From positions 96,001-160,000 of the forward strand of contig CAWFXA010000002.1 in the NCBI GenBank assembly GCA_963819655.1: DNA of 64,000 nucleotides, given 5' to 3'. This stretch comes from an uncultured Chloroflexia bacterium (GTDB lineage Bacteria; Chloroflexota; Limnocylindria; Limnocylindrales; CSP1-4). The notes under the pieces are model-generated. The model was not told the origin of the DNA. It saw nothing but the letters and a program-made list of their open reading frames with translations, and did not search any database. Below, piece by piece: positions 14,207 to 28,276 of the stretch. How positions within the stretch are numbered: position 1 is the stretch's first letter; each line of letters starts with the position of its first letter. The position numbers and the translations under genes were made by a program.

Positions 14207-17200
14207 TCAGGCCTTCTCGGTCAGCCCCAGCCGGATCGCGACAGCGGCTGCCTCGACCCGACCCGACACGCGCAGCTTCGCCAGGATGTTGCCGACGTGG
14301 ACGCCGACGGTCTTCTGGCTGATGAACAGTCGCTCACCGATCTCGCGGTTGGTCCGGCCTCGAGAGATCTGGGCGAGGACCTCGCGTTCGCGTCCGCTCA
14401 GGCCGAACGTGTCGCGACTCGCAGGTGGCTCGACCGGTCCGCCGAGTTGCCACGCATCGGCCTGGTCCGAGCCATCAGCGCCGACCGGCATGAGCGCGGC
14501 GGCGACCGGCGCGGGGGCGATGACGCCGACCAGTTCGCGTCGTCGATCGTCCGGTCCCGCCAGGGCTTGATCGACCTCGGGTGGCAGCTGGATGAGCGCT
14601 CGACCCGCCAGCTCGCGCAGCTCGCGCAGCAGCGGCAGTGCCCCGAGCGCGAGTGCCGTGTCGACGGCTTCCATCAGCGGGATCCGGGCGTCTGCCCGAC
14701 CCGCGCGGCCGGCTCCCGACGCGAGCATCGCCTCGGACTCGTGCCACCGCGCGCGGGCGGTCTCGTACGGGATGTGCAGCGCGCTCCATGCATCGCCGAC
14801 CGCGGTCCAGGTAGCGGGGTCGTCGCGCGCATCGACGCGCCGCCGATGGGCACGTGCCGTCGACAGCCACGCGTCCGCCAGCCGGCGGGACCCCAACGAC
14901 GGAGCGACGCCGTGGCGCTTGACGATCGCCTCGGCTGCGCGGATCACGTCGCGGGCTCGCTCGCGGGCGGCGGCGAGACCGGCCAGGTCGCGCTGTTCGC
15001 GTGATTCGGCCGCGGCCGCCGCCTCGACCTCGATGACCGCGGTCGCCGTCCGCGCGGCCAGGATCCAGTCCTCCGTCTCACGGACGAGTGACCAGCCCCG
15101 ATCGGCAGCTCGACGGGCATCGGCCAGGTCGCCCCGCCACAACGCGAAGGAGGCGGAGGCGAGGTGGAGCGGCACCGCCTGCTGGGCATCCCTGACAGCC
15201 TCGAGCTCTAGCAGCGTCTGACCGAGGAGGCGGCCGGCCGCCTCGCCGGCGGACAGCTCGATCTCGACGGTCGCGAGAGAGACCAGCGCGTTGAGGAAGT
15301 TGATGCCGGCGGGCAGCCACTCGAGCGCGGTCATGCTCATCGCCCGCGCCTCCTCCCAGCGCCCGAGCAGGAAGAGCGAATCCGCCGCGTTGCCGCGCAG
15401 GACGTTGCCGTACACGGCCTCGAGGCCGGCGGCCTTGGCGGCCTCGATCCCGGCCGATGCGACCGTGACCGCATCCTCGTGCCGGCCGGCCAGCTCGAGG
15501 ACCGTGGTGAGGTTGGCATGGATGCGGAACAGCTCGTCGAGGTCGCCGAGCTCTTCGGCCATCGCCCGAGCGTCGGTCAACATCGCCAGCGCCGCCTCTG
15601 GATCCGCGCGCCAGCCGAGAGAGACGCCGAGTGTCGTCGTGGCGTGCAGCTCCCAGCGGCGCGCCGGAGGATCGCACGCCTTCGCGATCCGGATCGCGTC
15701 GCGCGCGAGTCGATCGGCCTCGGAGAACGTGCCTTCGAGCATGAGCATCTGCGCCAGTCCGGCGACGACGGCCGCTCGGGCCGGGGACGGCGTGGTCGGA
15801 ACGAGATCGACTGCCCGGCGCCGGGCTGCGAGCGAGCCCTCCGCGTCCCCGGCCACCCGGCGGAACTGAGCCAGCCGGTCGTAGATGAGACCAAGCCGCG
15901 TGCGGTCGCGGCGTCCGTCCGTGGAGGCGATCGCCGCATCGAGGTATGCCGCGGCCCGGACGGGCCGACCGGCTGCGAATGCCGCTTCGGCCGCGCGCGC
16001 GTTCATCTCGGTCGGTGGCAGCACCGGTGGGTCGCTCCGGCGCCGACCGCCGTGGCGCGATGTGACGCCGGTCGCGCTGCCGGCCGCGATCGCCAGCTCG
16101 AGCGCATCCAGCTCATCGAGCGGCGCATCGATCGCCGCGGCTGCATCGGCTGCGGCGATCGCCGCATGACGCACCGCGACAGGGTCGAGAGCGGTCCGGA
16201 AATGGTGCACGGCCACGAATGGCTGGTCGTCGAGCGCGCGCGCGACCGCTGCGTGATGGCGGATACGCATCGACGGCAGGAGGTCGGCCTCGATCGCCCG
16301 GCCGACGAGCTCGTGGCGGAGCGCCAGGCCGGTATCGTCCTCGAGGACGAACCCGTACTCGATCGCCTCGTCGAGGCCGTGGGCCAGGTCGGCGTCGAGG
16401 ACGCCGTCGCCGCGCCGCGGCGCATGGGACGAGCGCGGCGGAGCGCTCGTCAGGTCCGCCTCGAACGCTTCGGCGATCGATGCCAGGTCCGCTCGTTTGA
16501 GCGGCCGCCCGGCCGGGGCCAGCAGGCGCAGCACCCGTCGCGCCTCCGGCGAACGGGCGGCGATCCGCGCGAGGACGAGATCCTGGAACGATGACGTGAG
16601 GGACACCGTGGGCAGCTCGCGCCGTGCCGCGAGGAGCTCCTCGGCGACCAGCGGGCGCCCGCCGGAGCGCTCGGCGACCACGACAAGCACGCTCGCCGAC
16701 GGCCGCGCGTCCTCGATCGACTCGATCAGCCTCGCCAGCTCGTCGCGCCGAAGGGGTGCGAGCGTGAGCCGGGCCGGGGGTCGTGGCGCCGCGTCGAGGC
16801 TGGTCAGGTCCACCGACCACGGATCCTCGCGCCTGATCGCGTCGGCCTGGTAGGTGGCGACCACCGCGAGCCGGTGGGACCGGGCGATCCGGGCAAGGAA
16901 CGTGACGAGCGCGCGCGTCCCTGCGTCGGCGCGGTGGAGGTCTTCCATGATCAGCAGGACCGGTTGCCGCTCGCCGAGTCGGCCGACCACGCCGAGCACG
17001 CCCTCGAGCAGCCTGGCCTGACGGCGCTCCGGCACGGCGGTCAGGATCCGGCGCCCGGCCGTTCCCGGCGGCTCGACGCGTTCCGCGAGCTCCGGGATCA
17101 GCCGGACGAGCTCATCCGTCGCGGTGCCAAGGACCCTCGCGAGCTCATCGTCCGGCAGCTCCGCAAGGACGGGTCGGAGCGCGCGCACCAGCGGTTGGTA

Positions 17201-17434
17201 CGGCGCGTCGGTCCCCGGGCCGAACGCCCCGCCCCGGAGGACGGCCATCGGCTCCTGGAGGCCGGCGACGCGGCGGATCGCCTCATCGATGAAGCGACTC
17301 GTGCCGACGCCGGCCGTCCCGTCGACGAGGAGCGTCCCAGAAGCGCCCGCCGAGGCCGATCGGAGAACGGTCGCGAGCCTCGCGAATGCGTCCTCTCGGC
17401 CCACGAACCGCGCGCTCGTGTAGGTGGCGCCCAT
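14207..17434 (-). CDS. Large ATP-binding LuxR-family (STAND/LAL-type) regulator: AAA, TPR-like, HTH
   Basis: FVGRE start, GTAGVGTS P-loop, EDLHRAD Walker B, C-terminal LSGREREVL..GRTNREIGERLFISQKTV..H; ATG 7 nt after TACGAT. Confidence 0.92.
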   Translation of the reverse strand: MGATYTSARFVGREDAFARLATVLRSASAGASGTLLVDGTAGVGTSRFIDEAIRRVAGLQEPMAVLRGGAFGPGTDAPYQPLVRALRPVLAELPDDELARVLGTATDELVRLIPELAERVEPPGTAGRRILTAVPERRQARLLEGVLGVVGRLGERQPVLLIMEDLHRADAGTRALVTFLARIARSHRLAVVATYQADAIRREDPWSVDLTSLDAAPRPPARLTLAPLRRDELARLIESIEDARPSASVLVVVAERSGGRPLVAEELLAARRELPTVSLTSSFQDLVLARIAARSPEARRVLRLLAPAGRPLKRADLASIAEAFEADLTSAPPRSSHAPRRGDGVLDADLAHGLDEAIEYGFVLEDDTGLALRHELVGRAIEADLLPSMRIRHHAAVARALDDQPFVAVHHFRTALDPVAVRHAAIAAADAAAAIDAPLDELDALELAIAAGSATGVTSRHGGRRRSDPPVLPPTEMNARAAEAAFAAGRPVRAAAYLDAAIASTDGRRDRTRLGLIYDRLAQFRRVAGDAEGSLAARRRAVDLVPTTPSPARAAVVAGLAQMLMLEGTFSEADRLARDAIRIAKACDPPARRWELHATTTLGVSLGWRADPEAALAMLTDARAMAEELGDLDELFRIHANLTTVLELAGRHEDAVTVASAGIEAAKAAGLEAVYGNVLRGNAADSLFLLGRWEEARAMSMTALEWLPAGINFLNALVSLATVEIELSAGEAAGRLLGQTLLELEAVRDAQQAVPLHLASASFALWRGDLADARRAADRGWSLVRETEDWILAARTATAVIEVEAAAAAESREQRDLAGLAAARERARDVIRAAEAIVKRHGVAPSLGSRRLADAWLSTARAHRRRVDARDDPATWTAVGDAWSALHIPYETARARWHESEAMLASGAGRAGRADARIPLMEAVDTALALGALPLLRELRELAGRALIQLPPEVDQALAGPDDRRRELVGVIAPAPVAAALMPVGADGSDQADAWQLGGPVEPPASRDTFGLSGREREVLAQISRGRTNREIGERLFISQKTVGVHVGNILAKLRVSGRVEAAAVAIRLGLTEKA

Positions 17435-17534
17435 CGAACCCATCGTACACAACGGTGGGAGCCGCTCATCCGTCCGCTGACGACGCGCGTATCCCGGTCG
17501 CGACCGACGGACTGGTCGCCCGATGGAGGTGGAG

Positions 17535-17921
17535 ATGAACCCTGTCAAGGCGTGGGCCACGCTCGCCGGGATCGTTCTAGTGGCGACCGGCCTGCTCGGA
17601 TTCCTCGGAACGCCGCTGGTCGGCAGCGCATCGGGCGCCCTCGTCCCGACGGACGGGCTGCACAACGTGGTGCACCTCGGCACCGGCGCGCTGGCCCTGT
17701 GGATCGCGTTCGGAACGACCGGCAAGACCCAGGTCGATGCGCTGCTCGGCTTCGGGATCCTGTACGTCGTGATCTTCGTCGCGGTCCTCATCAGCCCGAC
17801 GCTCTTCGGGCTGTTCTCGGTGCCGGCAAACGCGGTCGTCCATGTGATCCATGCCGCGGTGGCCGTCGTGAGCCTCGGCGTCGCGCTCATGGCACGCGGC
17901 AGCGAACCGGCCCGCATCTAG
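17535..17921 (+). CDS. DUF4383-like small membrane protein
   Basis: Four TM helices, LHNVVHL..G motif; GGAGGT RBS. Confidence 0.75.
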   Translation: MNPVKAWATLAGIVLVATGLLGFLGTPLVGSASGALVPTDGLHNVVHLGTGALALWIAFGTTGKTQVDALLGFGILYVVIFVAVLISPTLFGLFSVPANAVVHVIHAAVAVVSLGVALMARGSEPARI

Positions 17922-17935
17922 GCCGAACCGAACCC

Positions 17936-18631
17936 TTGCCGGGCGCGCACGAGACCCACGCGTCGATCGAGGTCCTTGCCGCGGCCGTCCTGTCTGTGGG
18001 CGGCGCGGCGATCCTCGTTCACGCGTGGGTCGATCGTCGTTCCGGGCGCCGGATCGTGGGGCTCCGCACATCGCCCACTCGGCCGCGACACGACGTCGTC
18101 AGGCGCTCCGCGCGGTCCCTCGTCGTCGTCCTGTCGGCGGGCGCGGCGGCCATCCATCTCGCCGCGGGGCCCGAGCACGTCGAGGCCCTCGGCGATCTCG
18201 GGTTGGCGTTCTACTGGGCGGCCCTGTTCCAGGCCGGGTTCGCCGTCGCGTGCCTTTGGGACCGCCCGGGCCGGTTCCTGATCGTCGTCGGGATCGTCGC
18301 CAACGCCTTGCTCGTCGGGGCGTGGGGGTGGTCGCGGACCGTCGGCCTGCCCTTCGTCGCCGGCGGGCCGGAGGCGATCGGTCTGGCGGACGCCGTCGCG
18401 GTCCTGCTGGAGCTGGGCATCGTGGCGCTGCTCCTGGCGCCGGCCATAGGTCTGGGCGGGCGCCTCGCGAAGGGCGTTCGACCGAGCGCCCTCCGGACCG
18501 CCGCGACCTCGGGTGTCGTGGCGATCGCGGGCGTCGCCGTGCTCGCGGCCTCGATCGCGGTGGCCGATGCGACCGGCGCGCACCACGCTGCCGGGACCGG
18601 ACACGACATGTCGGGCATCGAGATCCGCTAG
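17936..18631 (+). CDS. Hypothetical membrane protein
   Basis: Several TM helices, AAAIHL..H and SRTVGLP..PE..D motifs, His-containing tail; start (TTG) uncertain. Confidence 0.65.
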   Translation: MPGAHETHASIEVLAAAVLSVGGAAILVHAWVDRRSGRRIVGLRTSPTRPRHDVVRRSARSLVVVLSAGAAAIHLAAGPEHVEALGDLGLAFYWAALFQAGFAVACLWDRPGRFLIVVGIVANALLVGAWGWSRTVGLPFVAGGPEAIGLADAVAVLLELGIVALLLAPAIGLGGRLAKGVRPSALRTAATSGVVAIAGVAVLAASIAVADATGAHHAAGTGHDMSGIEIR

Positions 18632-18658: not shown

Positions 18659-19630
18659 GTGACTGACGGCCGCCGAGCCCCCCACCCCGACAACACCCTC
18701 AACGAACTGCCCGGCGAGGAGTGGCTCTACTTCACGAAGTCGGTCCTGACGACGGCCTATCCCTCGGAGCTCGGGCACGTGGCGCGCAAGGCGCACGGTG
18801 CCAACAAGCCACCGCGGCTCATGGCCCGCCTGATCGAGTTCTTCAGCAAGACCGATGAGCTCGTGCTCGACCCGTTCGCCGGCGTCGGCGGCACGCTGAT
18901 CGGCGCCGCGATCGCCCGCGGTCCTCGGCGTGCGCTCGGCATCGAGCTCGACCCGCGTTGGGTGGCGGTGTACGAGGAGGTCGTCGCCGGGCTGGCCGCC
19001 GAGCGCGACGGGCACGGCCCGGCCATCGCGGATCTCGGGACGGCGGATCCGGGCCCGACTCGATCGTTCGATCCGGCTGGCCTCGAGATGCGGACCGGTG
19101 ACGCGCTCGACATCCTGCCGACCCTCGCCGAGGCCTCGGTCGACCTCGTGGCGACCGACCCGCCGTACAACATCCAGCTGCCGTTGACGATGGCCGGCGG
19201 CAAGCTCGCAGAGACCCACGCCAACCGCCGGACCGACTACGCGATGATCAGCGACGCGCCGGCCGACCTCGCCAACGCTGCCGACTACGGCTCGTTCCTC
19301 GAGGCGATGGGCCGGGTGTTCGCTGAGCTCGCGCGCGTCGTGCGACCGGGCCGCTACGCTATCGTCATCGTGCGCGACGCGTACCAGGCTGGCCGCTACC
19401 AGTTCGTGGGGGCCGATCTGGCCGCCCGTGCCGACGCGGCCGGCCTCGTGCCCAAGGGCGACCTCATCTGGCACCAGGCGGGGACGCGGCTGCGGCCCTA
19501 CGGGTACCCGCGCGTGTTCGTCCCGAACATCGCGCACCAGCACATCCTGGTGCTGCGGCGCGAGCCGGTCGGGCGCGAACGGCCGCGCCGGGACCGGCCG
19601 GCTCAGCCCCGGCGGCGACTCTCCATGTAG
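18659..19630 (+). CDS. N4-C/N6-A DNA methyltransferase with permuted motif order
   Basis: H..KP..L..LI..VLDPFAGVGGT (motifs X, I) precedes GDA..L..SVDLVATDPPY (motif IV). Confidence 0.85.
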   Translation: MTDGRRAPHPDNTLNELPGEEWLYFTKSVLTTAYPSELGHVARKAHGANKPPRLMARLIEFFSKTDELVLDPFAGVGGTLIGAAIARGPRRALGIELDPRWVAVYEEVVAGLAAERDGHGPAIADLGTADPGPTRSFDPAGLEMRTGDALDILPTLAEASVDLVATDPPYNIQLPLTMAGGKLAETHANRRTDYAMISDAPADLANAADYGSFLEAMGRVFAELARVVRPGRYAIVIVRDAYQAGRYQFVGADLAARADAAGLVPKGDLIWHQAGTRLRPYGYPRVFVPNIAHQHILVLRREPVGRERPRRDRPAQPRRRLSM

Positions 19631-21323: not shown

Positions 21324-22076
21324 ATGGAGGTCATCCACCCGCCACAGGCAGCCCGGCGACCGTCGATGGCGCCGCTCCTCGGGGGCACCGTCATCGGGAC
21401 CGTGCTCATCGTCGCGGGCATCGTCCTCGCATATGTCGCCCTCGCGACGCCCCTGCTGCGGTCAGTGCTCCCGCAAGGGCGCCTCGACGCTGGTGAGATG
21501 GCGACCGGTGCCGCAGTCTGGGCGATCGCGCTCGTCGCGCCCGCAGGTTTCGTGCTCGTGGGCACGAACCGGCTCGTCCGGATCCTCGCATCGGTCCGCG
21601 GCCGGATCCCTCGGCGGTCGGCGACGATCCGCGCACTCGACGGGGTTGCCGACGACGTCATCGTCGCGACGGGCATCACGCTCCCCGACGGACGGGGCGT
21701 GTCGGAGCTCGTGATCGGGCCGTTCGGGGGCGCCGTCATCCGCGAGCTGCCGCCCACCGCGGTGACACGCATCCGCGAGGGGCACTGGGAGCTCCGCACG
21801 AGGCGCGGTTGGATCTCGATCGAGAATCCGCTCGACCGCGCCGCCCGGGACGCCGAACGCGTCCGACGCTGGCTCGGCCACGACGACGCCGACTTCGTCG
21901 TCAAGGTGTATGCCGCGGTCGTCGGACCCGAGCCGACCGTGCGACGGACGACGGACTGTGCGGTGCTCGACCAAGACCAACTCGTCGCATGGATCGAGGC
22001 GCTGCCGCCACAGCGAAGCCTGACCGAGGGCCGTCGCCAGCAGGTCGCAGAGACGGTTCGCGCCGCCGCCCGCTGA
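21324..22076 (+). CDS. Membrane protein with degenerate NERD-like domain
   Basis: Two N-terminal TMs, then LVIGPFG..VI and ENPLDRA..A pattern reminiscent of NERD. Confidence 0.65.
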   Translation: MEVIHPPQAARRPSMAPLLGGTVIGTVLIVAGIVLAYVALATPLLRSVLPQGRLDAGEMATGAAVWAIALVAPAGFVLVGTNRLVRILASVRGRIPRRSATIRALDGVADDVIVATGITLPDGRGVSELVIGPFGGAVIRELPPTAVTRIREGHWELRTRRGWISIENPLDRAARDAERVRRWLGHDDADFVVKVYAAVVGPEPTVRRTTDCAVLDQDQLVAWIEALPPQRSLTEGRRQQVAETVRAAAR

Positions 22077-22097
22077 CACAGCTGGCCGGACGATGTC

Positions 22098-22173
22098 TGG
22101 TAGGGGAGCCAGGACTCGAACCTGGAACCAGCGGGATATAAGCCCGCCGCTCTAACCGTTGAGCTACTCCCCC
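22098..22173 (-). tRNA. tRNA-Ile, anticodon UAU
   Basis: 76-nt cloverleaf GGGGGAG TA GCTC AACGGTTA GAGC G GCGGG CT-TAT-AT CCCGC TGGTT CCAGG TTCGAGT CCTGG CTCCCCT A CCA; A73, encoded CCA. Confidence 0.93.
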
Positions 22174-22222
22174 GCGGCGATGCTACACCCGGAGCGGGTG
22201 CGATCGGTCGAACGCGGCCGGG

Positions 22223-22525
22223 TCAGTCGCCGAGCAGCTTGCCGGCGATCGAGCGAAGGCTCAGGTGCCGCCCGGCCAGCCTGAGGGGCGCATCGTTGCG
22301 GCGGCCATCGGCCCGCCGACCGTCGAGAGCTCCACCACCGGGCGCCCAGGCCCGAGCCGGCAGTGCCGCGGCGAAGGCCCTGTCCGCTTCGGTCTGGAAT
22401 GCCTCGATCGGGAGATCATCCGGATCGAACGGCCGCTCCACCGTCGCCGCCACACCCGGCGGGCGGGCGTAGGCCGGTGCTCCGTAGAGCTTCGGGAGCG
22501 CGACATGCTGCTCGTCGATGGACAC
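22223..22525 (-). CDS. Hypothetical protein
   Basis: GTG start after GAGG; VSIDEQHVALPKLYGAPAYARP..PFDPDDLPIE; coding-like codon usage. Confidence 0.6.
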   Translation of the reverse strand: MSIDEQHVALPKLYGAPAYARPPGVAATVERPFDPDDLPIEAFQTEADRAFAAALPARAWAPGGGALDGRRADGRRNDAPLRLAGRHLSLRSIAGKLLGD

Positions 22526-22681
22526 GCGGAACCTCGAAGGATGATTGCGGTGGTCTCCCTGGATCGCCCGGAAGACACGCCGGATGATGATGCCCAGCGC
22601 AGGGTAGCGGGAATGGTACGGATGGGCTAGACGATCTGGATCGTCGGGTCGGCTTTCGTGTTGCACTTGCGCGACAAGGGC

Positions 22682-23077
22682 TCAGGCGAGCATCGGCCGG
22701 ATGAGCTGGAGCGTCACGATCATCACCAGCCAGGCGATCGGCACCGCGGCGAAGAACCCAAGCGCGGCACTCCAGACGCTCCGTCTTCGGACCGTGCCGG
22801 AGCCCGTCGGCTGGGGCACGACGAGGTAGGTGACGACGGTGCCGACCGCCAGCACGACGGCCGCATAGACGACCAATGCGAGGGGGCGCAGGTCGCCGCC
22901 GGGGACGTCGGCGCCGCGCACGAGCGCCAGATCGTAGGCCAGGTACGCGACGGCCAGCACGATGGCGATGACCAGGCTGGACAGCACCGCCCGCACGACC
23001 GGTCGGGGAGCGTTGCGGAACTGGCGCCAGCGGACCTCCGCCCAGGACCGTCGCCGGACAGGTGCCCCGTCAGCCAC
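22682..23077 (-). CDS. Hypothetical 3-TM membrane protein
   Basis: Three hydrophobic segments; start overlaps the stop of the upstream aminotransferase. Confidence 0.75.
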   Translation of the reverse strand: MADGAPVRRRSWAEVRWRQFRNAPRPVVRAVLSSLVIAIVLAVAYLAYDLALVRGADVPGGDLRPLALVVYAAVVLAVGTVVTYLVVPQPTGSGTVRRRSVWSAALGFFAAVPIAWLVMIVTLQLIRPMLA

Positions 23078-24305
23078 TGAGGATCGTGAGCGTCCGGCGA
23101 GGCGGCATCGTCTCGGGCGTGTGGCCCGAGAGCAGCTCGACGGTGCCGGCAAACCGCTCGAGCTCGTCATCCGACGTGAAGAACCCGACGCTGATCCGGA
23201 GTGCGTCGATGAGCGGCACCGTCCGGGCGACCGCGAACACCCGGGCACTCAGCTCGTCGAGTGCGAGCTGCGCGGGCCAGCCGGCGATCCGGAACGCGAC
23301 AAGATTCGCCATCCGGTCGATCGGCGTGACCACCTCGACGCCGTCGATCGCCGCCAGCCGATGGGCGGCCGTCTGGGCGGTCGCCGCACCCCGCCCGTAG
23401 ACCCAGTCGAGGCCCAGGAACATGCTCATCCAGCCGATGGAGCGGGCCATGCCGACGATCGACGGGCGGTGATAGTTCGACGCCTCGAACCGGCGAGCGT
23501 CCGGCCACCGAACTGCCGTCCCATTCGAGTCGACGGTCTCGAACGTGAAATGACCGCCGTAGGCCGGGGTGAGGCGATCGCGGACCACCGGCGCCAGCGC
23601 GACCGCACCCATGCCCTCGGGCCCGAGCAGCCACTTCTGCGCAGGAACCGCGTAGACATCTGCGCCGGTCGCCGCAAGATCCACGGGCATGGCACCCGCG
23701 CTCTGCGCGCCGTCGACGACGAGGATCGCCCCGCGCGCGTGGGCCATCTCGGCGATCCGTGCGACCGGCAGGACCGTGCCCGAGGCCCATAGCACGTGTG
23801 AGATCGCGACGACCCGTGTCCGTTCGTCGATCGCGCGGTCGAAGTCGGCGAGGACGTCATCAGGATCGCGCGACGGCCCGACGTCGACGAAAACGATCTC
23901 GATGCCGAGCCGGTCGCGCAGGTTGTATAGGGCGCCGATCCCGCCCGGGTGCTCGAGGCTGGTCGTCACGGCCCTGTCGCCCGGCCGCCAGTCGATCGAC
24001 CAGATCCCGATGTTCATGCCGTCGGTGGTGGAATGCGTCAGCGCGATGTCGCTCACGTCGGCGGTGAGCACGGCGGCGACGGCGGCACGCGCCTCGGCCA
24101 TGCGCTGGAGCATCTCTTCGTAGTACGCGAAGTGCGCCCGGCCGGTTCGGAGCTCGTAGTCGGCCAGCTCGGCCATGACGGCCGCCGTCTCGGCCGGAAA
24201 CGGCCCCACCGAGCCCGTGTTCAGGTAGATGCCGGCCTCGAGCGCGGGGAGCGCCGCCCGGACGGCCGCGAGTCGCCCGTCGTCAGGGGGTTGGAGGGCG
24301 GCCAC
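23070..24305 (-). CDS. Class V PLP enzyme, cysteine/cystine C-S lyase-like (C-DES/CefD group)
   Basis: IYLNTG, EHP, VDGAQSAG, QKWLLGPEG (PLP Lys), RFE, LRIS; no SufS/IscS Cys loop. Confidence 0.88.
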   Translation of the reverse strand: MAALQPPDDGRLAAVRAALPALEAGIYLNTGSVGPFPAETAAVMAELADYELRTGRAHFAYYEEMLQRMAEARAAVAAVLTADVSDIALTHSTTDGMNIGIWSIDWRPGDRAVTTSLEHPGGIGALYNLRDRLGIEIVFVDVGPSRDPDDVLADFDRAIDERTRVVAISHVLWASGTVLPVARIAEMAHARGAILVVDGAQSAGAMPVDLAATGADVYAVPAQKWLLGPEGMGAVALAPVVRDRLTPAYGGHFTFETVDSNGTAVRWPDARRFEASNYHRPSIVGMARSIGWMSMFLGLDWVYGRGAATAQTAAHRLAAIDGVEVVTPIDRMANLVAFRIAGWPAQLALDELSARVFAVARTVPLIDALRISVGFFTSDDELERFAGTVELLSGHTPETMPPRRTLTILSG

Positions 24306-24324
24306 GGCCCGTATCATACCGACG
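24306..24324. promoter_or_regulatory. Symmetric bidirectional leaderless promoter
   Basis: TATCAT (+, 24312-24317) 7 nt before ATG 24325 and TATGAT (-, 24318-24313) 7 nt before GTG 24305. Confidence 0.7.
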
Positions 24325-25176
24325 ATGTCCGGCCTGGCCCGACCCGAGATCCTCGCCACGACCGAATGGCTCGCCGAGCACCTGGGCCGCTCGGGCGTGC
24401 GCATCCTGGACGCCCGCTGGCGCCCGGACGGGACAGGTGCCAACGTCCATCGCGCGGGCCACATCCCGGGAGCGGTGTCGGTCGACTGGCGCGCCGACCT
24501 CGTCGACATGGATCAGGCCGGCGATGCCATCCGCGTCGCGTCGCCCGGCCGGGTCGCGGCGACAGCAGGCAGAGCGGGCATCGGCGACGAGACGACGATC
24601 GTCATCTACGACGACACCCAGGGGCTGTACGCGGCGCGAATCTGGTGGACGTTCCGGACCTATGGCGCGGAGCATGTCCGGATCCTCGACGGCGGGTTCC
24701 CGGCGTGGAAGGCGGAGGATCGCCCGATCGAGCGCGGGAGCAGCGAGACCCCGCCGGAGCCGCTGACCCCGTTCACCCCACGCGGCCCGAACCGGCTCCA
24801 CCTGACGACGTCCGACGTCCGCGGCCTGCTCGGTGCCCCGGGGGTCACGTTGCTCGACGCGCGGGCGCCAGCCGAGTATCGCGGCTTCGAGGGCAACACC
24901 CGCCGGCTCGGTCACATCCCGGGGGCCATCAACGTCCCGGTCGGGTCGATGCACGCGGCCGGCAGCCAGCGCCTCCGCGATGGCGGCGACCTGCGCAATC
25001 GACTCCACGCCGCGAACGTCAGCCGCGGGAGCCGGATGGTGGCGTACGACGGGTCGGGCGTCGCGGCCGCGAAGCTCGCGTTCGTGCTGAGCCTGCTCGG
25101 CCACGACGATGTCGCGGTGTACGACGGCGGCTGGGCCGAGTGGGGCAACCGGCTCGACCTTCCGGTCGACCGCTAG
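24325..25176 (+). CDS. Two-domain rhodanese/sulfurtransferase homolog lacking the catalytic Cys
   Basis: GHIPGA twice, AARIWW, LDGG, YDGGWAEW; active loop reads YDGSGV. Confidence 0.9.
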   Translation: MSGLARPEILATTEWLAEHLGRSGVRILDARWRPDGTGANVHRAGHIPGAVSVDWRADLVDMDQAGDAIRVASPGRVAATAGRAGIGDETTIVIYDDTQGLYAARIWWTFRTYGAEHVRILDGGFPAWKAEDRPIERGSSETPPEPLTPFTPRGPNRLHLTTSDVRGLLGAPGVTLLDARAPAEYRGFEGNTRRLGHIPGAINVPVGSMHAAGSQRLRDGGDLRNRLHAANVSRGSRMVAYDGSGVAAAKLAFVLSLLGHDDVAVYDGGWAEWGNRLDLPVDR

Positions 25177-25820: not shown

Positions 25821-27548
25821 TCAGACGGGCCCCGGCGGAACCGTCCGTGCACCCGCCGTCACGAGCAGCTCCGACCCGTGCTGGAGGCCCTCGTACAGCG
25901 CCGTGACGGTCGCCACCGTGTCGATCTCGTCGACGGTCTTGTCGGGTCTGAGCGCGTGGATCCTCGGGAAGCGAAGACTGAAACCGGATCCGTGTCGCTT
26001 GCTCCGGACGATCACGTCGAAGGCGATCTCGACCACCACGGTCGGCTCGACCTGACGGTAGCGGCCGAACCGGGCGATCGTGTGCGCCTCGAACCATTCG
26101 GTCATCTCGGCGATCTCGGCGTCGGTCAGCCCGCTGTAGGCCTTGCCGATGTTGACGAGCTTGCCGGTCTCCTCGTCGCGGACCGCGAAGGTGTAGTCGG
26201 ACAGCACGCCGTGGCGTTTCCCGTGACCGACCTCGACGCCGACGACCACGCAGTCGATCGTCGCGAGCGCCTTCTTCATCTTCAGCCAGCCCAGCCCGCG
26301 CCGGCCCGGCGAGTAGCCACTCGTGGGGTCCTTGACCATGAGGCCCTCGTTGCGCCGGCCGCGCGCGTCGGCGAATGCGACTTCGAGGGCGTCCGCATCG
26401 CGCGCCACGCCGAGGTGCGACCGCGTGAAGTGCCCGCCGTCCTCGACCAGTGGCAGGTCGATCCGGTCGAGCCGCTCGCGGCGCGTGCGGAGCGGCTCGC
26501 GCAGCAGCGGGTCGACGGTGGCGTCGCCGTCTGAGTCGTCACCGGGCCCGACTGCGAGCAGGTCGAAGGCCACATACACGACCGGGATGTCGGTCCTGAT
26601 CTGGTCGGACGGCGTCTTGCGGCCAAGGCGTGCCTGAAGGCTGATGAACGGCAGCACGAAGCCATCCTTGTAGGCGAGGATCTCGCCGTCGATGACGCCG
26701 GTCCAGCGCAGCGGCCGCGCGGCTTCGACGATCTCGGGGAACTGGTTGCTCACGTCGTGGAGGTCCCGTGAGTAGAGGCGGACGTCCGAACCGCGCTTGT
26801 GCAGCTGGGCGCGGATCCCGTCGTACTTGTCCTCGACCCAGACCTCGGGTCCGAGGCGGCCGATGATCTCGTCGGCGTCCTCCGCTGGTGACGCGAGCAT
26901 GAACTTGAGCGGGTGGAACAGCGCGAGCTCCGCGTCACCGAGCTTGTCGTCGCGCGCGAGGGCTGCCAGCCGGCCCATGTCGCCGGTCAGCATGCCGGCC
27001 CATTTGACGTCCTCGATCGGTCGGCCGAAGGCTTTGGCGATCGCGGCCTCGACCAGGCCGTCGCGCAGCCCGATGCGCAACTCGCCGCCGAGCACTTTCA
27101 CGATGGCCTTCGCCGTCCGCGGGTCGGCGCGCACGAGGAGCGCGTGCAGCAGCTCTGCCTTGGCGGCCGACCCAGAGGCAGTCTCGATCGCCGCGAACGC
27201 GGCGGCCACGTCGGGGAGCGTCGGGCTCACCTCGGGAGGCGGGGCGTGGCCGGCTCGTGTCAGGACGTCCGCGACCGACAGGCTCAGGTCCGAGTGGCGG
27301 TCGTACGCCTCCGCGAGGTCCTCGCGGGTGGCGCCGGTGAGCGTGCCGACTGCCGCCACGATCGACGACCACCCGAGGCCGGTGGTCCGCTGGTCGGTTT
27401 CAGGGAAGGGCCGCCCGGTCAGGAAGACGGCCGCGATCGGCAGCTCCTCGGGGCTCAGGCTGCGCAGGTAGTCGGCCAGCAGGGCGGTCTTCTCGGATGT
27501 CCGGGTCGTGGCCGCCACGCGCTCGGCCAGCTCGCTCCAGCGGCGCAT
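25821..27548 (-). CDS. ATP-dependent DNA ligase (LigB-like)
   Basis: EDKYDGIRAQ motif I, DGEI, AFDLL, EGLMVK, WLKMK, LRFPR. Confidence 0.95.
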   Translation of the reverse strand: MRRWSELAERVAATTRTSEKTALLADYLRSLSPEELPIAAVFLTGRPFPETDQRTTGLGWSSIVAAVGTLTGATREDLAEAYDRHSDLSLSVADVLTRAGHAPPPEVSPTLPDVAAAFAAIETASGSAAKAELLHALLVRADPRTAKAIVKVLGGELRIGLRDGLVEAAIAKAFGRPIEDVKWAGMLTGDMGRLAALARDDKLGDAELALFHPLKFMLASPAEDADEIIGRLGPEVWVEDKYDGIRAQLHKRGSDVRLYSRDLHDVSNQFPEIVEAARPLRWTGVIDGEILAYKDGFVLPFISLQARLGRKTPSDQIRTDIPVVYVAFDLLAVGPGDDSDGDATVDPLLREPLRTRRERLDRIDLPLVEDGGHFTRSHLGVARDADALEVAFADARGRRNEGLMVKDPTSGYSPGRRGLGWLKMKKALATIDCVVVGVEVGHGKRHGVLSDYTFAVRDEETGKLVNIGKAYSGLTDAEIAEMTEWFEAHTIARFGRYRQVEPTVVVEIAFDVIVRSKRHGSGFSLRFPRIHALRPDKTVDEIDTVATVTALYEGLQHGSELLVTAGARTVPPGPV

Positions 27549-27574
27549 GGCGGGGATGGTATACGGTTCCGCCG

Positions 27575-28276
27575 ATGGCGCCGCGAACATGGTTTCCGGA
27601 GGTCCTGACGGGGTCGCTCGTTGTGCTGCGCCGTCACGCGCCGGAGAACCTCGAGGCCTTCCGGCGGTGGTACTCGGATCCGGAGATCGCCCGGCTGGCT
27701 CGCTACCAGGAAGCGCCGATGCGCGCCGAGGAGATCGAGCGGTTCTTCACGGCACGGGTCGTCGGTTCGGACGCGCTCGCGATGGCCATCCACGTCCGCG
27801 GCTCGGATCGCCTCGTCGGCACGTGCGCGTTCAGCCAGCTCGACGGGGATAACGGCTCCGCCCTCTATCACATCACGATCGGCGAGAAGGACGCCTGGGG
27901 CCGCGGCTACGGGACAGAGGCGACGCGCCTGATGCTCGAGCATGCGTTCGGTCCGCTGGGCCTGCATCGCATCGCGCTCTTCGTGTTCGAGTTCAACGAG
28001 CGGGCCATCCGGACGTACAAGCGGAGCGGTTTCGTCATCGAGGGGCGGGCGCGCGAGTCGATCTTCCGGGACGGTCGCTGGTGGGACGAGCTCGCGATGA
28101 GCGTGCTCGAGTCGGACTGGCGGCGGCTCCGTGCGGCCGAGATCGAGGATGACGCGGAGCGCGACGGCCTCCGCGAAGAAGCCGAAGCAGTCGGTGCGGA
28201 GACGGTGGGCTCGATGCCACAGCCGCCCCATCGGACGAGCGAGCTCATCCGGAGGACGGTCAGGAGGTTCTCGTGA
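27575..28276 (+). CDS. GNAT acetyltransferase, RimJ/RimL family
   Basis: WGRGYGTEA, LHRIAL.V..N.RA..Y..GF..EG. Confidence 0.92.
   Translation: MAPRTWFPEVLTGSLVVLRRHAPENLEAFRRWYSDPEIARLARYQEAPMRAEEIERFFTARVVGSDALAMAIHVRGSDRLVGTCAFSQLDGDNGSALYHITIGEKDAWGRGYGTEATRLMLEHAFGPLGLHRIALFVFEFNERAIRTYKRSGFVIEGRARESIFRDGRWWDELAMSVLESDWRRLRAAEIEDDAERDGLREEAEAVGAETVGSMPQPPHRTSELIRRTVRRFS

Follow-up and report, generated by a model that had tools for sequence, protein, structure and literature searches.

A tRNA-Ile(UAU) gene that probably replaces the lysidine system for AUA decoding in an order of free-living Chloroflexota

The tRNA gene at positions 22098–22173 raises the question of how its host reads the isoleucine codon AUA. 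The literature describes TilS as essential and almost universal among bacteria, and treats it as an enzyme that bacteria alone possess (PMC11947777). The gene encodes a UAU anticodon, which would pair with AUA directly. The window, which is the whole 64,000-nucleotide stretch of DNA analyzed here, spans positions 96001–160000 of contig C2 in a 3.49-Mb genome (3 contigs, 69% G+C, 91.25% complete). Taken together, the evidence makes it very likely that the UAU tRNA is the only AUA decoder of this genome, that it replaces tilS and tRNA-Ile2(CAU), and that it is charged by the resident type-2 IleRS.

ARAGORN found a single tRNA in the window, tRNA-Ile(tat), on the minus strand from 22173 to 22098. 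The gene is 76 nt long with the CCA end encoded (22100–22098). The Rfam tRNA model RF00005, which has a gathering score of 29, also recovered it, scoring 71.9 bits (E 3.8e-15); model positions 1–71 are all matched, so that the alignment runs end to end. The anticodon consists of U34 (22140), A35 (22139) and U36 (22138) and lies in the loop C-U-U-A-U-A-U (anticodon at 22138–22140), with A at position 37 and U at position 38 (22136). The discriminator is A73 (22101). The 5′ strand of the acceptor stem, GGGGGAG (positions 1–7), lies at 22167–22173, and the 3′ strand, CUCCCCU (positions 66–72), occupies 22101–22108 together with A73. The pairs are G1-U72, G2-C71, G3-C70, G4-C69, G5-C68, A6-U67 and G7-C66. 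The gene product is thus an elongator-type tRNA with a gene-encoded UAU anticodon, A37 and A73. The cloverleaf with the loop CU-UAU-AU, A73 and an encoded CCA, as described in the initial annotation, was confirmed by ARAGORN, Rfam and the minus-strand sequence. Its G4-C69 and G5-C68 pairs are likewise right, since the acceptor pairs read that way on the minus strand. The strand itself was absent from that annotation.

A scan of 21900–24700 for promoters and terminators turned up nothing promoter-like, and the single terminator-like site is at the level of chance. Contigs from four sequencing runs (2 DNA, 2 metatranscriptome) extend over the tRNA. Transcription of the gene was considered on the basis of the metatranscriptome-run contigs and rejected, as RNA libraries can hold DNA and these contigs are without ends.

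Conservation of the tRNA was examined in 71 distinct orthologues with 500 shuffles as control. 99.1% of stem cells are paired, and compensatory change was observed in 11/21 stem pairs, a score as high being reached in 0/500 shuffles. The covarying pairs include 5/5 of the anticodon stem and 4/5 of the T-stem. Covariation in these 71 sequences indicates that the tRNA is under purifying selection. The anticodon columns are invariant in 72 aligned sequences, an invariance that comes from the selection of rows because the collecting pattern fixes CTTATA. Position 38, which the pattern left free, is a U in 36 and a C in 35 of the 71 distinct sequences and never an A, so that a pyrimidine is found at this position throughout the order. 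A38 is found in the CAU Ile2-type tRNAs of relatives (8/8), and in the UAU tRNAs of families f35 and f56. The G1-U72 wobble is kept in 68/71 distinct orthologues.

The lysidine system was then sought in the genome itself. Whole-genome ARAGORN found 50 tRNAs, only two of which have a CAU anticodon. (The tmRNA was missed by ARAGORN and found by Rfam.) One CAU tRNA has a C1xA72 mismatch and, in its anticodon stem, three G-C pairs; the other is of the elongator type. The mismatch and the three G-C pairs are marks of bacterial initiator tRNAs, and we take the first of the two to be the initiator on these features. The elongator-type CAU tRNA differs by one D-loop base from a CAU tRNA of the TilS-bearing family f4 that lacks the GGGCCC acceptor stem. 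Neither a third CAU tRNA nor a GGGCCC-type CAU tRNA was found among the 50. As to whether tRNA-Ile2(CAU) is present, which the initial annotation had proposed to check, the answer is therefore no: just the initiator and the elongator Met tRNA carry CAU.

The search for tilS, proposed in the same place, had the same outcome with PF01171, TIGR02432 and tblastn. The TilS PP-loop family PF01171 has 0 matches in the genome, and all 14 control genomes score. The TilS-specific model TIGR02432 gave a best score of 18.8 bits against a cut-off of 93.6. It was over the cut-off in 10/14 named control genomes, the remaining four being archaea, and it detects TilS at 150–200 bits elsewhere in the phylum. 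Archaea should be without TilS. The archaeal analogue TiaS is also absent from the genome. When all ORFs of the tilS locus of a classmate were compared with the genome by tblastn, only the neighboring gene was matched and no TilS. No tilS remnant was seen at the place syntenic with genome G169. The gene that adjoins tilS in G169 has its orthologue at C2:1338350–1339249, and the tRNA-Met that flanks tilS in G169 sits on another contig in the genome studied here, so that synteny around this place is broken.

To place the absence in a wider sample, TIGR02432 was run on 201 genomes of the class, each at least 85% complete. It was over the cut-off in 109/201, and every one of these belongs to the sister families f3, f4 and f5 (118 genomes together). 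The model was over the cut-off in 0/83 genomes of the window's order (the genome itself, 72 from its own family f1 and 10 from family f2). PF01171 was over its cut-off in 0/41 relatives. The relatives are mostly draft metagenome-assembled genomes, several of them in 1–4 contigs; absence from a single genome is weak evidence, and the case rests on the pattern across many genomes. Genomes flagged as unpublished make up 6/118 of the sister-family count, and the claims on the order itself rest on none.

The tRNA was surveyed in the class with a pattern written from loci of the order and run on 301 class genomes with a reversed control. The pattern was found in 109/115 genomes of f1, 12/13 of f2 and the genome itself, that is, in 122/129 genomes of the order and 122/301 of the class. 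It was found in 0/61 of f3, 0/110 of f4 and 0/1 of f5 (0/172), and the reversed control gave 0. Clearly, the UAU tRNA and TilS are mutually exclusive across the families of the class. Independently of the pattern, 40 loci of the order were fetched by tRNA similarity, and ARAGORN called all but one of them (39/40) tRNA-Ile(tat). The exception is a tRNA-Met, and the UAU copy of its genome is one of the 39. When the same pattern was run on one genome per species of all prokaryotes, at least 119 contigs were matched. Among the 80 contigs listed, nearly all are titled Chloroflexota or Chloroflexi, Candidatus Limnocylindria, Limnocylindrales, Limnocylindrus or Aquidulcis, and three bear other labels (L090 Binatia, L147 Patescibacteria and L160 Verrucomicrobiia). 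The depositor label for contigs of the order is Candidatus Limnocylindrales, which NCBI puts in Chloroflexota; judging by the contig titles, the window's order is presumably the depositors' Candidatus Limnocylindrales.

These results bear on three other explanations. TAT is one base away from CAT, so a CAT gene could have been misread in sequencing or assembly, or could have mutated recently. Base 22140 was therefore checked in the contigs of the four runs, as the initial annotation had advised, and none of the 40 listed differences (of 77) falls inside 22098–22173. An error or a recent change is scarcely credible for an anticodon that recurs in 39/40 similarity-fetched loci from different species, in 122/301 class genomes and on at least 119 public contigs from many depositors. 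The combination named in the initial annotation as evidence against its reading, relatives with CAT at this locus together with tilS, was not encountered, TilS being found in 0/83 genomes and TAT in 122/129 genomes of the order.

It is equally hard to credit that the tRNA was brought in by a phage or other mobile element and reads AUA-rich genes of foreign origin rather than those of the host. A DNA methylase gene does lie 2.5 kb from the tRNA, but the tRNA is order-wide and single-copy, has a host-like G+C content and is the sole candidate AUA reader of the genome. Its neighborhood is also conserved, with a class-V aminotransferase gene within 4 kb in 12/12 f1 loci.

The third explanation makes the UAU tRNA an auxiliary AUA reader, with TilS and tRNA-Ile2(CAU) hidden in the unassembled 9% of the genome or too divergent to be detected. 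We regard this as very improbable. A completeness of 91.25% leaves room for it, and five Chloroflexota genomes (G347, G440, G523, G579 and G652) do combine TilS over the cut-off with a TAT-loop tRNA. However, an identical search put TilS over the cut-off in 0/83 genomes of the order and in 109/118 of the sister families, PF01171 was over its cut-off in 0/41 relatives, several relatives are in 1–4 contigs, TIGR02432 performs well in the controls and elsewhere in the phylum, and the genome has no GGGCCC-type CAU tRNA. The initial annotation had proposed that this lineage replaced the lysidine system, and the absence of both tilS and Ile2(CAU) from the genome, together with 0/83 against 109/118, bears that proposal out. 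The ancestor of the order would thus have exchanged tilS and tRNA-Ile2(CAU) for tRNA-Ile(UAU).

The same exchange was looked for elsewhere in the phylum. TilS is over the cut-off in 275/301 Chloroflexota genomes that are at least 90% complete, and outside the window's order six are without a match. By ARAGORN, 3/6 of these have a tRNA(tat) with an Ile2-type acceptor stem (in family f35 G409 and G433, in family f56 G522). In f35, TilS was found in 0/2 and the UAU tRNA in 2/2 genomes; in f56 the counts are 0/7 and 6/7. In genus g244, TilS hits stay below the cut-off (39–41 bits) in 2/2 genomes and the UAU tRNA pattern is present in 2/2. Judged by gene content, at least three further Chloroflexota lineages show the exchange from TilS to a UAU tRNA. 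The f35 and f56 UAU tRNAs keep the GGGCCC-type acceptor stem. Since the five genomes named above have both TilS and a TAT tRNA, the UAU tRNA alone is no proof of lysidine loss. Two genomes in these counts are flagged as unpublished: G620, one of the seven of f56, and G579, one of the five with both.

Where the UAU tRNA came from was approached by comparison with the tRNAs of TilS-bearing Chloroflexota. These have a CAU tRNA with the acceptor sequence GGGCCC(R), that is, G3-C70, C4-G69 and C5-G68, alongside an elongator Met tRNA whose stem has GGCGGAG or a close variant. Pairs 3:70/4:69 or 4:69/5:68 are the ones recognized by TilS enzymes (PMC11947777), and the GGGCCC-type CAU tRNA is for this reason taken as tRNA-Ile2. 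In the window tRNA, G4 and G5 stand where the Ile2(CAU) of TilS-bearing relatives has C4 and C5. The initial annotation had pointed to missing TilS determinants C4-G69 and C5-G68 by reference to E. coli, and the CAU tRNAs of the TilS-bearing relatives uphold this, having G3-C70, C4-G69 and C5-G68.

The best match of the window tRNA in 3/5 sister genomes (f3 and f5) is a CAU tRNA with a GGGCCC acceptor, at 81–82% identity over positions 7–66; in the two f4 sister genomes it is tRNA-Trp. Core identity to Ile2-type tRNAs reaches a maximum of 0.93, and Ile2 is the best partner for 19/35, with a mean core identity of 0.72 to Ile2 versus 0.69–0.71 to unrelated tRNAs. For the acceptor stem, the nearest counterpart is that of elongator tRNA-Met, with up to 12/14 positions identical (maximum 0.86) and a difference at pair 3-70 only; the identity of the stem to Ile2 has a maximum of 0.57. 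A tblastn comparison of the tRNA neighborhood with the CAU loci of the sister families and with family f2 gave no matches. Descent from Ile2 followed by remodeling of the acceptor stem would be the simplest account, with moderate support. A C34-to-U change in the Ile2 gene would then most likely have given rise to the new tRNA, and the pairs read by TilS would have been lost from the acceptor stem later, once TilS no longer read them.

A tRNA with U34 must also be charged with isoleucine. The IleRS gene of the genome (C3:730443–733751) encodes 1103 amino acids with the domains tRNA-synt_1, Anticodon_1 and DUF5915, and PF19302 is matched at 95.2 bits. The zinc-binding domain zf-FPG_IleRS was not found in it. 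The DUF5915/ARD3 C-terminus and the lack of the zinc-binding domain make this a type-2 (eukaryote/archaea-like) IleRS. DUF5915 is present in 121/121 class genomes searched, TilS-bearing families included, suggesting that the type-2 IleRS is older than the loss of tilS. The nearest solved relatives are the entries 8c8u to 8c9d of a 1032-residue bacterial IleRS (E 1e-54), presumably PmIleRS2. Chain positions 961, 964, 965 and 969 of these entries correspond to Q, R, R and L in the IleRS of the genome. In the bacterial type-2 enzyme the base-34 pocket is formed by Q961, R964, K965 and L969, and the R964A change abolishes charging (PMC13752280). The corresponding Arg999 of yeast IleRS hydrogen bonds to the carbonyl of G34, and C34 is rejected; by modeling, Arg999 likewise contacts I34, U34, pseudouridine-34 and the lysidine imine (PMC11685878).

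The base-34 arginine is kept in 29/29 Chloroflexota IleRS, and no pocket substitution that tracks TilS loss was seen among the 29 (excluding two fragments from the split gene of G145). Because the type-2 IleRS is class-wide and the base-34 arginine is kept, charging of the UAU tRNA by the resident enzyme probably needed no new adaptation, the enzyme being pre-adapted. The unchanged pocket fits pre-adaptation and gives no positive sign of co-evolution. The resident IleRS would thus charge the UAU tRNA with isoleucine, its arginine pocket accepting U34 as it does G34; on this comparison of genes and structures we infer that the UAU tRNA is an isoleucine acceptor.

How much AUA there is to decode was estimated from a crude gene set of long ORFs picked by GC3, which covers 71% of the genome. 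ATA accounts for 392 of 818,766 codons in 2214 coding-like ORFs and occurs in 332 of them, i.e., 0.48 per 1000 codons or about 1% of isoleucine codons. ATA is equally rare in the TilS-bearing sister families (0.7–1.0 per 1000, from small samples). In family f2 (63% G+C) it is still rare, although ATT increases to 13.9 per 1000, also from a small sample. The initial annotation had named two AUA codons in the window. That at 18446–18448 (plus strand) stands, in a coding-like frame with GC by codon position of 0.77/0.55/0.91; for 32985 (minus strand), what stands is that an ATA triplet starts there. Further ATA codons of the crude gene set lie in the window at 24314, 44644 and 49597. Orthologue columns at 31 ATA codons are mostly V (18), I (8), L (2), M (2) or A (1), from 14 clusters and 94 loci, 17/31 coming from one cluster. 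These counts are compatible with AUA being read as isoleucine and also leave room for methionine or valine.

A tRNA with U34 must in addition spare AUG. MnmG and Elp3 are absent from the genome, which makes an xm5-type group on U34 unlikely, and U34 is probably without one. AUG would presumably be spared because tRNA-Met competes, because AUA is rare, and because the anticodon loop or the ribosome is tuned, as in Mycoplasma mobile. It is possible, if unlikely, that the UAU tRNA reads AUA with a U34 modified by an unrecognized enzyme, for example to a 2-thio or pseudouridine form, which would provide both specificity for AUA over AUG and good charging. MnmA is present (329 bits), position 38 is always a pyrimidine, and an order-specific cysteine-desulfurase-like gene lies just upstream of the tRNA in 12/12 f1 loci. 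All three fit such a modification, but neither MnmG nor Elp3 is present. Known substrates of MnmA carry U35, and the window tRNA does not. In f2 the desulfurase-like gene and the tRNA are not linked, as judged by contig, and this gene has just paralogue-level matches, at 31% identity or less, in the independent TilS-less families f35 and f56. Pseudouridine-34 plays such a part in eukaryotes. With regard to charging, yeast IleRS prefers the modified tRNA, on which it is 40-fold better than on a bare UAU transcript (PMC11685878); conversely, M. mobile manages with an unmodified U34 (PMC3575796). An unrelated and undescribed modifier of C34 or U34, beyond the reach of homology searches, could still exist.

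The class-V aminotransferase (cysteine-desulfurase-like) gene was itself tried as a partner of the tRNA and rejected: it is order-specific, but unlinked in f2 and without an orthologue in f35 and f56. A bolder idea, which we consider doubtful, is that the invariant pyrimidine 38, the Met-like G1-U72 acceptor stem and the desulfurase-like neighbor in the soil family may jointly keep U34 off AUG. The means could be a dedicated thiolation or other U34 modification, or tuning of the 32-38 pair. As to the third of these features, the tRNA of the soil family has a fixed position, directly downstream of the genes for this PLP enzyme and for two small unnamed proteins.

Replacement of the lysidine system by the UAU tRNA has precedents. 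tRNA-Ile(UAU) without tilS is known from M. mobile and further mycoplasmas as well as from Bifidobacterium and Neorickettsia, and by 2013 metagenomes had yielded 371 TAT tDNAs (PMC3575796). A 2026 paper speaks of 'rare cases' (PMC13752280). The initial annotation had made much of the rarity of tRNA-Ile(UAU), and here it went too far, as the system is of a known kind. M. mobile also has no tilS and a gene-encoded UAU tRNA-Ile instead of tRNA-Ile2(CAU), and its tRNA is proposed to have arisen when C changed to T in an Ile2 gene (Taniguchi et al. 2013, PMC3575796). It differs in having a type-1 IleRS with a Trp-to-Arg change in the zinc-binding domain, whereas the enzyme here is type 2 with its pocket unchanged; the feature of the M. 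mobile type, Arg or Lys in place of Trp (S. aureus 890) in the zinc-binding domain, has no counterpart in an IleRS that lacks this domain. M. mobile is a 0.78-Mb AT-rich parasite, whereas the genome here is 3.5 Mb with 69% G+C, from a free-living lineage in which AUA is rare. In M. mobile an unmodified U34 and rejection of AUG at the level of the ribosome were demonstrated (PMC3575796).

Bifidobacterium and Neorickettsia are closest in logic, with no tilS, a UAU tRNA and a eukaryote-type IleRS (PMC3575796). They belong to other phyla and represent independent events, and the passages of PMC3575796 on which we draw give no worked-out mechanism for them. In the present case, compared with these two, the loss can be traced to a single order whose sister orders in the class have TilS. 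Eukaryotic tRNA-Ile(UAU) resembles the present case in the C-terminal architecture of IleRS, the base-34 arginine (ScIleRS Arg999) and the reading of AUA by UAU (Chen et al. 2024, PMC11685878). It differs in its psi-A-psi anticodon, with pseudouridine at 34 and 36 (PMC11685878), a step of a kind not known here. Suppressors of a tilS deletion in Bacillus subtilis also live without TilS through a change in a tRNA gene, but they were obtained in the laboratory and in one strain (PMC3919564). A literature search, with the supplementary list of TilS-less taxa of PMC3575796 lying outside it, found no report of tRNA-Ile(UAU) or tilS loss in Limnocylindria or other Chloroflexota.

The trick itself is thus known, and what is new is a large order of free-living Chloroflexota as a case of it. 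The loss of TilS is clean at the level of the order, in abundant free-living high-G+C bacteria of soil and freshwater, and the TilS-bearing sister orders serve as natural controls. All IleRS genes examined in the phylum have the type-2 base-34 pocket, which fits a testable rule: where IleRS reads base 34 through a conserved arginine, a single C-to-U change in the gene for Ile2 would suffice to make TilS dispensable, most easily when AUA is rare. With this rule, the question of how a plain U34 avoids AUG could be approached outside the mycoplasmas as well. For annotators, it suggests that tilS should not be expected as a universal marker in these lineages.

Outside the order of the window, three further Chloroflexota lineages (f35, f56 and genus g244 of f11) have tRNA(UAU), and TilS never exceeds the cut-off (TIGR02432, 93.6 bits) in any of them. 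The tRNA lies at G409:C150:24821-24870, G433:C14:39442-39491 and G522:C43:58622-58673 (genome, contig, coordinates); G683 and G689 are further genomes of these lineages, and the corresponding fetched loci are L230, L241 and L233. In f35 and f56 the tRNA retains both A38 and a GGGCCC-like acceptor stem of the type found in tRNA-Ile2. A tRNA with TAT in the anticodon loop was also found in five TilS-bearing Chloroflexota genomes (G347, G440, G523, G579 and G652). Either both systems coexist in these genomes or the TAT tRNA is foreign. In the TilS-bearing sister families f3, f4 and f5, tilS directly adjoins the gene for elongator tRNA-Met rather than that of its substrate, tRNA-Ile2, as seen at loci L226 (G169:C1:768177-769012), L225, L238, L222 and L235. 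Among the matches listed, contigs L090, L147 and L160 encode a Limnocylindrales-type tRNA-Ile(UAU) under the depositor labels Binatia, Patescibacteria and Verrucomicrobiia; these contigs are probably mis-binned.

When genomes were searched with a 450-residue C-terminal query of isoleucyl-tRNA synthetase (IleRS), the f56 genes (L266-L270) matched residues 2-283 of it and no more. These proteins still align at the motif of the pocket that contacts anticodon base 34, and the stretch ahead of this pocket is shortened. In G145, a genome assembled as one contig, IleRS is divided between two reading frames (L257 and L271, G145:C1:1431441-1432785); the division stems from a frameshift or is an assembly error.

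Upstream of tRNA-Ile(UAU) is a co-directional run of genes (22223-24509, minus strand) that is kept in f1, the family of the window. It comprises a class-V aminotransferase resembling cysteine desulfurase (23070-24509, minus strand), which scores 125 bits with the SufS-family model, far under the cut-off of that model, then a small membrane-like ORF (22682-23248, minus strand) and a second small ORF (22223-22666, minus strand), the last before the tRNA. Neither small ORF had a match in Pfam or NCBIfam. In 12/12 f1 loci, no more than 4 kb separates the aminotransferase from the tRNA. Orthologues were found in 34/34 f1 genomes, mostly with 48-79% identity and several of them split or partial, and in 5/5 genomes of f2, a family of the same order, with 37-39% identity. 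Matches in the sister families, f35 and f56 are at paralogue level only. Other genes nearby encode an N6/N4 DNA methylase (18659-19630, plus strand) and an ATP-dependent DNA ligase (25821-27590, minus strand). The window also encodes a LuxR-type AAA/TPR regulator of 1236 aa (14207-17917).

Elsewhere in the genome that contains the window (G000), ARAGORN reported a tRNA-SeC (C2:1010835-1010931) and an unusual 'tRNA-???' of 95 nt whose anticodon has two bases (C2:1366936-1367030). It reported no tmRNA, which Rfam placed at C2:478835-479210 (120.9 bits).

Because neither MnmG nor Elp3 was found in the whole of G000 and MnmA is present (C3:400665-401723, 329 bits), U34 of the Lys, Glu and Gln tRNAs would be thiolated without the xm5 group. 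This is the state of these tRNAs in Actinobacteria. Deaminases possess an H-A-E motif, and a TadA-like ORF (C2:1614837-1615286; 108 bits against a cut-off of 150) has H-A-V in its place. Whole-genome ARAGORN detected tRNA-Arg(GCG) at C2:1608777-1608852 and no tRNA-Arg(ACG). This combination is described in PMC8007984 as an archaeal pattern that is unusual in bacteria. The tRNA-Arg(GCG) and the TadA-like ORF may represent a second bypassed wobble-modification system in this organism.
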